Of a stretch of DNA of 64,000 nt, positions 40,204-47,337 are shown piece after piece. The stretch spans positions 8,076-72,075 of the forward strand of contig RDOA01000015.1 of assembly GCA_011364925.1 (NCBI GenBank), given 5' to 3'. The position numbers were made by a program, and so were the translations under genes. Positions within the stretch are counted from its first letter, which is position 1. Every line of letters begins with the position of its first letter. This DNA is from Promethearchaeota archaeon (GTDB taxonomy: Archaea; Asgardarchaeota; Lokiarchaeia; Sigyniarchaeales; SOKP01). Under the pieces are notes generated by a model that saw only the letters and a program-made list of their open reading frames with translations, was not told the origin of the DNA and searched no databases.

Positions 40204-41163
40204 ATGATTTATTCCATTTTTCTTTATCAAAGCCACACTGGATTATTGATTTACGAAAAGAGTTTTCAAGATATTAGTGCGGGAAAAATGGAAATGTTTA
40301 GTTCTTTTTTCTCAGCGATTAAAACTTTTGTTTCTGAACTTGTTTTAGGGGATTCTCAGGATCGCTCAAATGAATTGACAAACATCGAACTAAAAGATTA
40401 TATCATTCTAATCACCTCTTTACCTAAAATTAAAGTCGATATGGCAATTATCGCTGATAAAGAAGATATTAAATCCATAAACAAAGTTATACCAAAATTA
40501 ATTAAATTGTTAAACAAATACGAACAACTATTTCTTTTATGGAATGGAAATAAGGATGAATTAACTATTTTAGATAACCCACTTACAGAATCAATTGTAT
40601 CTAATGTAAAAGTTGTGAGAAAATCTTTGTTAGAACATCCTGGTCAGATGTTAAAATCAATTTGGGCGCATAAAAAGAAACTCTCAGAAGAAAACGTTGA
40701 AAATCTAATCCAAGAACGAGATTTATTAATTTACAAAATTGAGAATATTGGGAATCTCCCAACTAAAATTGCTATGTCTAAAACCGTTATTGATTTATCA
40801 GAGAAATTAAACGATGAATTAACCTTTCTGAAATATCAGGATGAGATTATTAAGCTAAAAAATGAATTAAACGATGTTAAGTTCAAATTGAGCTATTACT
40901 TAGAAAAAACAAGAGAAGCTTTAAATGAGGCTATATGTAAGTTAGGTGATAAACCACTTCATTTAGGCGATTTTAAAAGCACATATCTTAATTTGTATTC
41001 CTTTAGCACAAAGCTGAAATTAATAAAAGAAAGTGGTTGGGAAATCTATCGCGATTCTGCAACTAAATTAATTGAAAAAGACATGGTAAGTGAACATGAT
41101 CTTTCTCAAATTATCCAAGATTTGTTAAAAATGAGTACTAATGTTGAAGATTATTTGAGTTAA
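40204..41163 (+). CDS. Longin-like N-terminal domain plus helical C-terminus
   Basis: GLLIYEKSF..MFSSFFSAIKTFVSEL pattern typical of Asgard longin-like proteins. Confidence 0.7.
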   Translation: MIYSIFLYQSHTGLLIYEKSFQDISAGKMEMFSSFFSAIKTFVSELVLGDSQDRSNELTNIELKDYIILITSLPKIKVDMAIIADKEDIKSINKVIPKLIKLLNKYEQLFLLWNGNKDELTILDNPLTESIVSNVKVVRKSLLEHPGQMLKSIWAHKKKLSEENVENLIQERDLLIYKIENIGNLPTKIAMSKTVIDLSEKLNDELTFLKYQDEIIKLKNELNDVKFKLSYYLEKTREALNEAICKLGDKPLHLGDFKSTYLNLYSFSTKLKLIKESGWEIYRDSATKLIEKDMVSEHDLSQIIQDLLKMSTNVEDYLS

Positions 41164-41191
41164 CTATATCTATTTCAATTCATTCTAATTT

Positions 41192-42394
41192 TTATTTAGT
41201 ATGTAATTCGATTATATCATTTTCTTTTAACTCGTAATTTAAACCAACTTTTTTCTTTTTTTGTTTTACGCCTTTCCGAATAACGATAGCATAATCGAAT
41301 GATTCGTAAAAACTTCGATGTATTTTAATTGCTACATCCCTTATCGTAGGCTGAATTTGGATACAATCAAGAATAAGCGGTTTTTCTGCAATTACACCCT
41401 TATGCATAGTATAAATTTTGATTTTTTTTAAAAAGGTCAGTACGATTTTTCCAAAATCCTCTGGAATTTCCCCCTTTATAGCACTCGTCCCTATTACCAA
41501 TGGGAACTGGTTAGAATAATAATTTTGTAATTCAAAAAATGTATTTTTGGTAAGTGATAAGTCTCCTTTAGTTCCCAATATGATAGCTTTCTTGTATGCT
41601 ACAGAAGGATTTAGTGCATCTACAACCTGATCAAGCTCAATCTGTCCAAAAATTTTAACAATCCCGTTCCGTATACCTCCAGCGTGAACTATTTCTGTAA
41701 TTTTCTCTGTCAATTCTTCAAGATTATTATTTTTTTTAGCTTCACTTGTTAAATAAAATACTTGAATTTTATTGGATCCTGTTTTTTCGATTGTAATTGG
41801 AGGAGGAGGGAGATTAATTCGTATGTGAGATTCACTTAATTCGTTAAGTAGCAAATTCATTTGCTCCTGATAATTACGTGATAAATCAACGCAAAAACAT
41901 ATTAGATCACATGCTCTTAATTGAGAAATTATTTCTTTGCCATTACCTATTCCGTTCGCTGCCCCTTCCATTATGGAAGGCATGTCTACTATTTGGTAAC
42001 GAACTTTATTATACTCATAAATTCCTATTTCAGGTAAAGGTGTAAATTTGCCAATCTTTTCTTTTGCAGTTCCTGTTAATAAATTGAGAATAGAAGTTTT
42101 TCCTACTCCGGGAGTATGATAATCACTTATTAGAATCAATTGGATTCCTTCTTTTTTTATAGAAAAGGGACTAACTTGCTTACCCATAGATTTACTACGA
42201 ATTTTTTGAGCTTCTTGTTCTCTTCTAAGTTTAGCAAGCCGCGATTTGTTTAAGGCAACAATTTTCTCTGTAGCTTTGTGTTTTGGAACTAAGGAAAGAA
42301 ATTCTTCTAAGCGGTTAATCCTTTCATCAATCGTAGTAGCATCTAAATACTTTTGATAAGCGGCTTCAGCTTCTGGTCCTATATTTGAACTCAA
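41192..42394 (-). CDS. DRG/OBG-family GTPase with TGS domain
   Basis: PKHKATEK, PGVGKTS, TKGD, VAIKIH, VGLNYELKENDIIE. Confidence 0.88.
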   Translation of the reverse strand: MSSNIGPEAEAAYQKYLDATTIDERINRLEEFLSLVPKHKATEKIVALNKSRLAKLRREQEAQKIRSKSMGKQVSPFSIKKEGIQLILISDYHTPGVGKTSILNLLTGTAKEKIGKFTPLPEIGIYEYNKVRYQIVDMPSIMEGAANGIGNGKEIISQLRACDLICFCVDLSRNYQEQMNLLLNELSESHIRINLPPPPITIEKTGSNKIQVFYLTSEAKKNNNLEELTEKITEIVHAGGIRNGIVKIFGQIELDQVVDALNPSVAYKKAIILGTKGDLSLTKNTFFELQNYYSNQFPLVIGTSAIKGEIPEDFGKIVLTFLKKIKIYTMHKGVIAEKPLILDCIQIQPTIRDVAIKIHRSFYESFDYAIVIRKGVKQKKKKVGLNYELKENDIIELHTK

Positions 42395-42427
42395 TAAAAA
42401 AGACCTCTCTTAATTTGTATTTATAAT

Positions 42428-42883
42428 TCAAAAAATTGACCGGAATCTATCTTCGGTTTTTAGTTTTAAATCTCCTATTATTTCATTAATTCGAACTTCA
42501 AATTTTTGAAAGAATTTTTCTTTTTTTGAGAAAATATCGTTAAGAGAGTATCTATTTAAAAAACGGGAATTAACTTCCCTTAGATGTTTCTTTACAATGG
42601 TTGAATCTGTTTCTTTTTCAGTTATTGCGAAAGATATCAAAGGTTGCTTGTTCGATTCGTCGTCTGGTAAAGAGATTAAATCACAATAACATACCAGTTT
42701 AAATGAGGCTAGAGAAATGACATTTATATCATCACCAAATACTTCTGATGTGAAACTTTCGAGAGCAGAGAGAAAACCGGCTCTTAATTCGGGATCTAAC
42801 CCCACTCCAGTATCTGAATCATAATACTTTATATTTAAAAGATTCCGTATCCCTAAATTTATTCCAAGTTCTAAGATGGCCAT
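42428..42883 (-). CDS. Stand-alone longin-like protein
   Basis: LRAGFLSALESFTSEVFG..I.L; F..RY and FQKFE in the C-terminal helices. Confidence 0.7.
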   Translation of the reverse strand: MAILELGINLGIRNLLNIKYYDSDTGVGLDPELRAGFLSALESFTSEVFGDDINVISLASFKLVCYCDLISLPDDESNKQPLISFAITEKETDSTIVKKHLREVNSRFLNRYSLNDIFSKKEKFFQKFEVRINEIIGDLKLKTEDRFRSIF

Positions 42884-43945: not shown

Positions 43946-45055
43946 TTAAATTCTTCGACGACGCTGAATTATGTAAGCAATCAAAACAATTGCTCCAATA
44001 ACTGTTAATAATATAATTAAAATTATATAATTAAACTCGACCATGAATATATCTTCGTTCAATAAATCTAATAAACCTAGTGATTGTAAAATCTTGAATG
44101 CAGAATAAGTTGTACCAATAGAAGAAAATTTTTGATCAGTCCCTTCAATCGAATCGCCAAAACCACCATCAAGAAAATTTTGATGTTTTAAGACCCAATT
44201 TGAGGTTGCGTCTTTATTTAATTCATTTATATCTATAATTTTAATTCCTTCAACGCAGAGAAGGGTACTTCCTAATAATGTAACTTCAGAAAATAGATCT
44301 GGTAAATATCCACCATAGTTATCAAGATTATTAGAATCTCCGATATAAAGCGACTTAAAGTAATCGAGTGTCGCAGTTGTGTTTACTAAATTACTAATTG
44401 TACCTAATTCGGTTGTTAAATAAACCGCAAAATTGGTTGTTGTTAAAGTAGATGGTAGAGTTTGGTTTCCTCCATAGCCACCATCAGAATTATAGCATGA
44501 TGAGATCCAATTTAAATGTGTTGTCTTATTTTTGACTGGTTCATTAAGCAAAGAATATATATTATAAATGTAGTATGTTGAAACCATGTTAGCATGCCCA
44601 GATTCGTTTGTGGGACTAAATCCTCCACCAATTTGGTAAGTTTCATTTATATATCTATAAATTTTATTATGAAGAGATGTATTTAATGCTGTACTTAATG
44701 GTTCCAATACATTTAAAGCTTCTAAGTTATATTTTATAGTGTATATATCGATTGTTTCAGAAGAAAACATTTGATTAATTTCATTTTTAAGGTAATTTTT
44801 CAATTTGAGGATGTCAACGCTTTTGGTCCCGCTAAATGCGTTATAATAGGCTATAATTTCTATTGCATTAGCAGTTTCTTGGGAATTAACGCCAAAACTT
44901 TGATCTTTATGTTGATATTTGTAAATAAAATCAACTAGATAACTCTCACGGGTTTTCGCGAGCACGATAGGAGTGATACTTAACATTACTATAATAACTA
45001 AAAACACAAATGATAAATTTCGAACTCTCTTATTCAAATCGAAGTGAAACCCCAA
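43946..45055 (-). CDS. Membrane-anchored prenyltransferase/squalene-oxidase-repeat protein
   Basis: N-terminal signal peptide, repeats QIGGGF / NSDGGYG / QNFLDGGFG, C-terminal TM plus RRRR. Confidence 0.8.
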   Translation of the reverse strand: MGFHFDLNKRVRNLSFVFLVIIVMLSITPIVLAKTRESYLVDFIYKYQHKDQSFGVNSQETANAIEIIAYYNAFSGTKSVDILKLKNYLKNEINQMFSSETIDIYTIKYNLEALNVLEPLSTALNTSLHNKIYRYINETYQIGGGFSPTNESGHANMVSTYYIYNIYSLLNEPVKNKTTHLNWISSCYNSDGGYGGNQTLPSTLTTTNFAVYLTTELGTISNLVNTTATLDYFKSLYIGDSNNLDNYGGYLPDLFSEVTLLGSTLLCVEGIKIIDINELNKDATSNWVLKHQNFLDGGFGDSIEGTDQKFSSIGTTYSAFKILQSLGLLDLLNEDIFMVEFNYIILIILLTVIGAIVLIAYIIQRRRRI

Positions 45056-45184: not shown

Positions 45185-46711
45185 CTAAAAAATTTCACTT
45201 ATGCTCTTGTATAGAGTAGCACTATTGGACTGAAATTGTTCGTGGGTTACAAATAAACTTTGAAAGCTTGGAAGACTCCCAAGTATGCTCGCACCATTAA
45301 ATATAGCAAACTGTAAGTTTTCTGGGACAAAAAATCTTAAAACTTCTTCTGATGATTCGTAGAAACCTGAAAATTCTTTTGCAGGTGTAGTATTCTTAAT
45401 AATCTCGGGAGGAATCTCTGGAATTCTTGTTGTTTGAATACTTGCTCCACAATACGGACAAAAAAATGACTTAACGTCTTCAATTTCTTTATTACAATTA
45501 GAACATAAAATTTTGCCACCTTCAAGCTTGGAATTTTTAGCCATTTTTACACCTCCAATTGTAAGTTCTGGTAATGCGATTCGACCGTTACAAGATGGAC
45601 AAAATTCTTTACCATCTGTAAGATCTACAAGCGTACCACAATGTGGGCATGTATCTTCCTTCTTTTGCGATTTTTCCTTTGGTTTTAACTTTTGCCTTCC
45701 TTCCCGCGAAGGTTGAGTAATTTTAGGTTTAGGGATCTTTCCTAATTGAGGGAGTAATTGGTTTAATTCTAATCTCAGTCTCTCTTCAAATCCAGAATAT
45801 GAGAGATTTCCACCCGAAATCATAATATGAGAAAGAAGATCACTCCAGAAGTATTTATCGATTCCTTGTAAACTATTTATCATTGCCTCTGGTATATTCA
45901 TAATATTATATCCCAATAAATTAGGCTTAAACATTACCTCTGGAGCTTCATGGAAAATATAATTTGGAATATTAATGTTTGAACCATCTGGCATCGCAAA
46001 ACTATAACTTTCATCTACTTTTGGAGGGTTCTCGGGATCTAAAGCAAAAAAACAATTCTTTTCTTTGATATCTTTAACTATTTCATCTACAGCGCTTGAT
46101 TCTATATTGATCCCTTCTCTCATAAGCAAATTTTTTAAATGCTGATTTACATCTATACCAGCTAAAGTTAATTTTTGGACTGATTGCTCAACCATTTCTC
46201 CATTTAGAATCGGGCATACCCAAGTTATCCCATCACCACTTTCTACAACAATTCCAGTCGTAAGACCTACACTGAATAGTGAAAGTATTGGTGTTGGGAT
46301 CATTATTAAACTTTTTACTCTATGCGTTTCAAACAAAACTCGGGCAATGTATTCCTTAGTCTCTCGTTGAACAAATGGAGATTCAGTATATAACACGGGA
46401 TAATTAGCCATGTTTTCGATTCTAAGTAACGAATAAAAGATGTAATTTAATATTTCATAGTAGTCGTTCCAATCCGTTATCGCACCTCGTTCGATTGGGT
46501 GCTTTATTTTTAGAACACCTCTCATTTTTGAAGCGTCTGATCCAATATATATATTTCGAGCTCCCACATCAACCATCACAGCTTTATATTTTTCTGTACC
46601 TGTGATTGTGGGGAACACAAATCTAGGACTGGGCTCTCCTGCGAATCCTATTTTAGTGTAGGCTGATCCAATGTCAACAATAATCGGAGTTCCGGGTAAT
46701 GGGATTGCCAT
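45185..46711 (-). CDS. Actin-related protein with double zinc-ribbon insertion
   Basis: IVDIGSAYTKIGFAGEPSPRFVFP, HPIERG, ESGDG, ISGGN, GASILGSLPSFQ; insert with four CxxC pairs. Confidence 0.95.
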   Translation of the reverse strand: MAIPLPGTPIIVDIGSAYTKIGFAGEPSPRFVFPTITGTEKYKAVMVDVGARNIYIGSDASKMRGVLKIKHPIERGAITDWNDYYEILNYIFYSLLRIENMANYPVLYTESPFVQRETKEYIARVLFETHRVKSLIMIPTPILSLFSVGLTTGIVVESGDGITWVCPILNGEMVEQSVQKLTLAGIDVNQHLKNLLMREGINIESSAVDEIVKDIKEKNCFFALDPENPPKVDESYSFAMPDGSNINIPNYIFHEAPEVMFKPNLLGYNIMNIPEAMINSLQGIDKYFWSDLLSHIMISGGNLSYSGFEERLRLELNQLLPQLGKIPKPKITQPSREGRQKLKPKEKSQKKEDTCPHCGTLVDLTDGKEFCPSCNGRIALPELTIGGVKMAKNSKLEGGKILCSNCNKEIEDVKSFFCPYCGASIQTTRIPEIPPEIIKNTTPAKEFSGFYESSEEVLRFFVPENLQFAIFNGASILGSLPSFQSLFVTHEQFQSNSATLYKSISEIF

Positions 46712-46914: not shown

Positions 46915-47337
46915 TTACTCGATTTTTAAAGATTTTTCTAACTTCTTTTCTATATCTTCTAGCTCCACGAAAAGAGTTTTATAAGTTTTAAGTAAATAGT
47001 GACCCCAATCGTTTAATTTAACCCATCCTCCTCCACCAAGACCCCCTTTTTTGGTTTCTACGGGTGATCTTCCTGATCGCTCTTTAATTTTTTTTAAGAT
47101 ATTCCACGCATATTTATAAGAGTATCCACATTCCATTGCCGCTTTGGTTAATGATTTGGGCTCACCCATATCAGCATCATTAATAGAATCAAGTAATTTA
47201 GCCCAGCCTGATCCTAATATGTTTTTGCGATCCTCATCTTGAAATTCTAACCAAAATTTAATACCAAAACCAATTTTACTTTTTAATTTTTCAAAGTTCG
47301 AGTTTTTACTCAATTTTTCACTAGATGGATCTTCCAT
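46915..47337 (-). CDS. ModE-like winged-HTH regulator
   Basis: SLTKAAMECGYSYKYAW, VETKKGGLGGGG. Confidence 0.88.
   Translation of the reverse strand: MEDPSSEKLSKNSNFEKLKSKIGFGIKFWLEFQDEDRKNILGSGWAKLLDSINDADMGEPKSLTKAAMECGYSYKYAWNILKKIKERSGRSPVETKKGGLGGGGWVKLNDWGHYLLKTYKTLFVELEDIEKKLEKSLKIE

Follow-up and report, generated by a model that had tools for sequence, protein, structure and literature searches.

The window, a stretch of 64,000 nucleotides, encodes an actin-related protein (ARP) of 508 amino acids on the minus strand (45185..46711). The parts of this gene and its two linked neighbour genes described below lie on this strand. The gene comprises an actin core (residues 1-322, 45746..46711), delimited by alignment, AlphaFold and pocket residues, an insert (residues 323-457, 45341..45745) and a C-terminal actin segment (residues 458-508, corresponding to actin 327-375 in the alignment, 45185..45340). 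Residues ~6-326 match actins with E-values of ~1e-70. The best PDB match is the HC1 actin 9wc4 (E 2e-73), and the PDB alignment assigned residues 458-500 to the C-terminal segment of actin. The Pfam family Actin (PF00022) was detected with 1.8e-71 and 241 bits, against a cut-off of 27. AlphaFold modelled the actin core confidently, the ribbons moderately (pLDDT ~66-69) and the linkers as disordered. Superposition on actins gave a TM by target of ~0.9, and a structure search returned the cluster of the protein's own family together with actins. The initial annotation, made from the sequence, had already read an alignment to actin with a full-length D-loop. The actin fold and the full-length D-loop were found, and the loop is closer to that of Lokiactin than to the eukaryotic one.

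The insert replaces the actin 323-326 loop. Between the columns of actin 323 and actin 327, the ARP has 135 residues and Lokiactin has 3. This net insertion of 132 amino acids at about nt 45341-45745 is close to the ~130 amino acids estimated before (approx. 45345-45750). It is organised as linker, ribbon 1, spacer, ribbon 2 and linker. All four CxxC motifs of the annotated ribbons (CPHC/CPSC and CSNC/CPYC) were located, starting at C355, C371, C403 and C418 (nt 45649, 45601, 45505 and 45460). Zinc ribbon 1 (C355/C358/C371/C374) and the conserved short motif that follows it occupy 45557..45655, zinc ribbon 2 (C403/C406/C418/C421) 45449..45505. The DZR profile scored above its cut-off of 27.3 bits, with 28.5 bits for the ARP and 36.7 bits for the insert alone. 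By its sequence, the paired CxxC knuckle is a C4 zinc ribbon/DZR (PF12773, PF13240) with putative zinc sites. Folded alone, the insert gave a low-confidence model (pLDDT 59), and an ESM Atlas feature search with the insert had no usable match.

Across the ARP family, the net length of the insert ranges from 99 to 210 amino acids. Ribbon 1 is present in 71/71 full-length orthologues examined and its cysteines are invariant. Both ribbons occur in 65/71; ribbon 2 is missing in the other six, including the L. ossiferum protein. One orthologue (L081:4013-5532) is split within ribbon 2 into two overlapping frames of 424 and 98 amino acids, probably by an assembly frameshift. Within the genus, ribbon 1 is 80% and the core 83% identical, in contrast to 34%-54% for the linkers. 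Ribbon 1 thus evolves nearly as slowly as the core, and the linkers are the fastest-evolving part of the protein.

Some zinc ribbons bind nucleic acids. The initial annotation had described a basic linker and proposed a nucleic-acid-binding arm; such an arm would couple DNA or RNA to the cytoskeleton. Linker 1 is basic in the window's genus (+7 in the window copy), and a helix-turn-helix gene lies upstream. However, among family members the net charge of linker 1 spans +9 to -10, and linker 2 is mostly acidic. The region of the ribbons has a charge close to neutral. The linkers also change fastest, and similar ribbons sit on many unrelated proteins of the genome. The basic linker is a feature of the genus and not of the family, and a nucleic-acid-binding function is highly improbable. 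The ribbon 1 profile matches ~40 other proteins of the window genome, which suggests that a common Lokiarchaeia module was recruited into the ARP; most simply, it would be a protein-interaction tag. Genome-wide, 107 ORFs contain the ribbon pattern CxxC-x(9-14)-CxxC, a large expansion of the module.

A profile search detected a full-length ARP gene in 133/144 genomes of the window's order, almost always as a single gene, and in 0/7 genomes from other orders of the class. In ~190 other Asgard genomes, the ARP was not found; the best matches were weaker, covered only the core and had the size of Lokiactin. Two genomes without an ARP copy, G100 (100% complete) and G028 (92%), may represent a loss or an assembly gap. 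A lack of read support for the insert had been named as a point of refutation and a survey of its conservation had been proposed. Contigs from other runs bridge both core/insert junctions: a contig of an independent run spans the first with zero differences, a contig of a related strain the second. The survey revealed an order-wide gene with ribbon 1 in all full-length orthologues. An assembly artefact or chance fusion is ruled out by the presence in more than 130 genomes, the independent contigs and an insert GC content equal to that of the core. The first annotation of an Arp with an insertion is supported in that the Arp is conserved, its insert is genuine and its hydrolysis residues are gone.

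Cultured Lokiarchaeia have orthologues. Tree, insert and synteny identified UYP44711.1 (NEF87_000996) of L. ossiferum, QEE17409.1 of P. syntrophicum (MK-D1) and MCF2140085.1 of Ca. Harpocratesius as members of the same family; the latter two were retrieved by exact look-up. UYP44711.1 matches both published qPCR primers, and an exact look-up confirmed the protein. The orthologues share a clade with 100% support, the insert position, ribbon 1 and the downstream gene with the window copy. They are ~36% identical to it, and the L. ossiferum protein has one ribbon instead of two. UYP44711.1 is one of three L. ossiferum ARPs listed, with transcripts assayed by RT-qPCR; Lokiactin transcripts were several-fold more abundant (PMC9834061). 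Zinc or an insert are not mentioned for UYP44711.1 in that study. Databases label relatives as 'zinc ribbon domain-containing protein'. A literature search on Asgard and Loki ARPs, with most subscription journals outside its coverage, found no description of the insert or of a function. The ARP belongs to a catalogued Asgard ARP clade and has an apparently undescribed architecture.

A quick tree search placed the ARP family in one clade (100% support) outside the Lokiactin clade. It is weakly sister to the UYP44126.1-like Loki ARP family (SH-aLRT 86), a grouping that joins two long branches. The clade is apart from unnamed eukaryotic actin-like representatives; named Arp2/3 and nuclear Arps were not part of the tree. 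Lokiactin (UYP47028.1; L051 in the window genome; solved relative HC1 actin 9wc4) and the ARP have the actin fold, pocket residues and a Lokiactin-type D-loop in common, at ~38% identity. In contrast to the ARP, Lokiactin keeps Q137, D154, H161, H73 and the barbed-face contacts at 96%-100% and has no insert.

Residue conservation was scored on 31 representatives of the ARP family with less than 75% identity. Equivalents of actin D11, G13, K18, G156, G158, E214, G301 and G302 are invariant; pocket changes concern G15, R183 and, in part, S14. The protein probably still binds nucleotide. The hydrolysis residues are altered, as annotated: a PDB alignment and a MAFFT alignment with eukaryotic actin yielded T140 for Q137, E157 for D154 and W164 for H161 (segment 46220..46294), the same replacements as in the manual alignment. 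Q137 is present in 0/31 representatives, being replaced by serine, threonine or alanine. H161 is retained in 10% and otherwise replaced by tryptophan, phenylalanine or threonine, and H73 is an arginine in 100%. Both residues that position the attacking water in actin, Q137 and H161 (PMC10062479), are replaced, so poor or no ATP hydrolysis is a reasonable expectation for the ARP. The loss is not special to this protein, because the other two Loki ARP families also lack Q137 and H161. In 14/14 representatives outside the window's taxonomic family (L031-L045 orthologues), S14 is replaced by glutamate or glutamine, beside the invariant R73. The exchanged residue might fill the place of the gamma-phosphate, which would favour ADP or an empty pocket.

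Changed catalytic residues and large inserts at polymer interfaces are also known from nuclear Arp8 and Arp4, and Arp8 shares the H73 to arginine exchange (PMC3510490). The ARP could therefore be a monomeric adaptor in a stable complex away from filament ends, like nuclear Arp4/Arp8. Its actin fold would serve as a scaffold stabilised by nucleotide, with subdomain 2 and the ribbons as binding sites for partners other than actin. Arp8 has changed Q137 and H161 and polymerisation-blocking inserts (PMC3510490), and arginine 73 is invariant in the ARP family. The ARP gene is single-copy and linked to genes for a membrane protein and a helix-turn-helix protein, not to Lokiactin. Against an adaptor, the conserved subdomain-2 residues are those of Lokiactin filament contacts, whereas the pointed end of Arp8 is covered by its insertion I (PMC3510490). 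The tree has no link to the included eukaryotic actin-like sequences, nuclear Arps not being among them. In nuclear Arp8 and Arp4, the inserts lie over the pointed end or the H-plug side and lack zinc ribbons, whereas the pointed face of the window ARP is intact, so the likeness is one of analogy only. We consider the adaptor a serious but rather unlikely alternative.

The filament contacts provided a pattern with polarity. Contact residues were taken by role from an F-actin cryo-EM study (bioRxiv 10.1101/309534). On the pointed face, subdomain 2 with the D-loop (residues 38-68, 46508..46600) has equivalents of K39, Y40, M44, R62, G63 and V64 that are 97%-100% conserved. Among the 31 representatives, the donor positions K39, R62, V64 and D244 are kept in 100%, M44 in 97% and G268 in 90%. 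D244 is part of an invariant P-D-G (actin 243-245, subdomain 4, 45983..45991), which other ARP families also keep, so its conservation is partly structural. Exceptions among donor positions are P38, a glutamate in 77%, and E205, which is lost. Acceptor positions are mostly lost: F/Y169 and E270 are not kept, E167 is present in 16%, H173 in 10% and R290 in 6%, and D288 is variable. On the barbed face of the window copy, the W-loop region (46184..46210) has E167 replaced by asparagine, F/Y169 by glutamate and H173 by glutamine; the subdomain-3 segment (residues 285-289, 45845..45859) has D288 replaced by tyrosine and R290 by tryptophan.

The match to Lokiactin/actin was 0.65 for 13 donor positions and 0.28 for 12 acceptor positions, against a background of 0.48 that includes buried residues (31 representatives). 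Two-sided p-values for the asymmetry were 0.018 for identity, 0.031 for BLOSUM and 0.020 for within-family conservation, in a post hoc test of an asymmetry noticed beforehand and with sequence-clustered, non-independent interface positions. The face asymmetry is therefore a lead. For long-pitch residues alone, it was borderline (p 0.05-0.06 for identity, 0.2 for BLOSUM). A broader interface list had given p 0.003 with hand-picked structural glycines and prolines; it was replaced by the paper-defined lists. The asymmetry is present in the window's taxonomic family and in the other families, each taken separately. The ARP is distinct from Lokiactin in several respects. It forms a separate clade, has changed Q137, H161 and H73, and combines the degraded acceptor face with an insert, versus ~380 amino acids with both faces intact in Lokiactin. 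Among the genomes searched it is restricted to the window's order, while Lokiactin is defined by its presence in all Asgard lineages.

Contact pairs between neighbouring subunits are broken, each on one side only. The ARP has R62 in 100% with D288 mostly lost, D244 in 100% with R290 in 6%, K39 in 100% with E270 not kept, and M44 (97%) and V64 (100%) with F/Y169 not kept. Actin residues 322-325 contact residues 243-245 of the adjacent subunit (PMC7247010). The insertion site of the ARP is this 322-325 contact loop, on the degraded face. The M44 pocket is partly retained (F143, T148, I165), and W290 is invariant within the window's taxonomic family, so the barbed face may bind some partner. N167 and Q169 are conserved in that family as well.

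A remodelled barbed face could also serve a polymer. The ARP would form its own short filament or oligomer, or would be built into Lokiactin filaments with the ribbons pointing outward, like Arp1. The full-length D-loop, the hydrophobic pocket residues partly kept, the residues N167, Q169 and W290 conserved in the window's taxonomic family, and the disordered linkers that attach the insert in the AlphaFold model are compatible with this. Yet the protein lacks conserved residues of opposite charge that could pair with its invariant R62, K39 and D244, the acceptor positions differ between families and the insert is located in a longitudinal contact loop. Polymerisation of the ARP is improbable.

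The UYP44126.1-like family (L054 = UYP44126.1; L050:2928-4037, G000 C91) leans the opposite way. It keeps Y143, Y169, H173, E270, D288 and R290 and loses M44 and R62. Its match is 0.75 for acceptor and 0.51 for donor positions, which alone gives p 0.11-0.15 (n=8 sequences); the contrast with the window ARP family has p ~0.001. From these residues, UYP44126.1-like proteins are candidates for a pointed-end cap or nucleator. Both families co-occur in the window genome and in L. ossiferum. With Lokiactin monomers or a UYP44126.1-like ARP, the window ARP might form a nucleator or length-defining seed comparable to the dynactin mini-filament. In this seed, the window ARP would seal the barbed end, and the second ARP would either seal the pointed end or act as a template for growth. 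The reciprocal face conservation and the weak sister grouping (SH-aLRT 86) would agree with such a seed, but the genes are unlinked and the sister grouping consists of two long branches. The chances of a joint seed are low.

The gene directly downstream (43946..45055) codes for a protein with an N-terminal hydrophobic segment, a prenyltransferase-type alpha/alpha toroid, a C-terminal transmembrane helix and a short basic tail. It is located 41-363 nt downstream of the ARP on the same strand in 62/66 loci, with identities down to 23%. A gene for a small helix-turn-helix protein is upstream in 56/66 loci. In the window it encodes 140 amino acids (46915..47337) of LysR/ModE type; this assignment comes from an HTH_1 match of its positional counterpart in L148, the window copy having no Pfam match. 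The linkage is no proof of a common function, because the toroid family also occurs in Thorarchaeota, in which no such ARP was found, and the synteny around the ARP includes folD as well.

From the architecture, conservation, residue pattern and gene linkage, we infer a non-polymerising, hydrolysis-impaired ARP that caps or anchors Lokiactin filaments at their barbed end and whose ribbons serve as a protein tether. This is our preferred reading and a tentative one, held at somewhat less than an even chance. The Lokiarchaeia-specific ARP would be the terminal subunit at the barbed end. Its conserved pointed face would dock on the filament end as an incoming subunit would. No further subunit would be accepted, owing to a barbed face without partner residues and an insert of 100-210 amino acids in the 322-325 contact loop. 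Via the flexible linkers, the zinc ribbons would connect this capped end with a second protein, perhaps at the membrane. The cap is supported by a donor face kept, an acceptor face lost and an insert on the acceptor face. Further support comes from the single-pass membrane protein gene adjoining the ARP gene, the slow evolution of ribbon 1, the replacement of Q137 and H161 and the opposite leaning of the UYP44126.1-like family. Against a cap, some donor residues are changed, the barbed face may bind a partner, flexible linkers might allow a neighbour subunit to pack, and a single Arp would block the end of just one protofilament. The initial annotation had offered an Arp that nucleates, caps or adapts Lokiactin. 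Capping or adapting fits the face-wise conservation. An Arp2/3-like nucleator is not supported, because it needs the barbed face, which is degraded and carries the insert.

In dynactin Arp11 and in Arp2/3, only one of the two filament-binding faces has been retained. It is the barbed face, with which these Arps bind the pointed end or imitate it. The window ARP also keeps one face, with opposite polarity. To our knowledge, no eukaryotic Arp caps the barbed end; eukaryotes cap barbed ends with capping protein and gelsolin. Asgard two-domain gelsolins (PMC9433394) would have barbed-end capping in common with the ARP as a proposed activity. They differ in fold and are calcium-gated, and E167, with which actin ligates calcium in the gelsolin site, is mostly lost in the ARP. 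If the ARP is indeed a cap, archaea arrived on their own, separately from eukaryotes, at an Arp that closes filament ends. Because the ARP family is lineage-restricted, it informs on parallel cytoskeletal elaboration and not on the direct forebears of eukaryotic Arps.

Lokiactin drives protrusion dynamics in L. ossiferum (PMC13716822). The residues of both ARP families would also be consistent with a pair of actin-derived end caps in Lokiarchaeia. The zinc-ribbon ARP would close and tether barbed ends and a UYP44126.1-type ARP would sit at the pointed end, together setting filament polarity and membrane anchoring in protrusions. Such a pair is speculative and unlikely at present. The near-universal presence of the ARP in the order, including cultured Lokiarchaeia, makes the control of actin filament ends testable in those strains, and the residue pattern gives a polarity-specific prediction for M44, R62 and the ribbon-1 cysteines.

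Several neighbouring features deserve description. The cytoplasmic basic tail of the toroid protein (43946-45055) ends with isoleucine, valine or leucine in nearly all orthologues. Only 13/142 proteins with a C-terminal transmembrane helix in the window genome end like this tail, a possible sorting or binding motif. In many relatives, a small CBS-domain gene is located directly upstream of the ARP (25 loci; e.g., L018:3093-3524); it is missing at the window locus. A promoter and terminator scan of the window, built for bacteria, stayed at chance level. In the window at 40204-42883, a divergent DRG/Obg-type GTPase lies between two longin-like ORFs. In the window's taxonomic family (16 loci), the 151-amino-acid ORF and the GTPase share synteny with the ARP.

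Besides Lokiactin (L051), the window genome encodes a second Lokiactin-like copy and two further ARPs. The second Lokiactin-like gene (L052:3190-4332, G000 C32) is 82% identical to the main copy, with intact catalytic residues, a longer branch and D-loop changes. A third ARP family (L049:3273-4469, G000 C90) is very divergent, with ~26% identity to Lokiactin, and is kept in the window's taxonomic family. Its Q137 is replaced by glutamate, its sensor loop is deleted and extra residues are inserted ahead of the D-loop.
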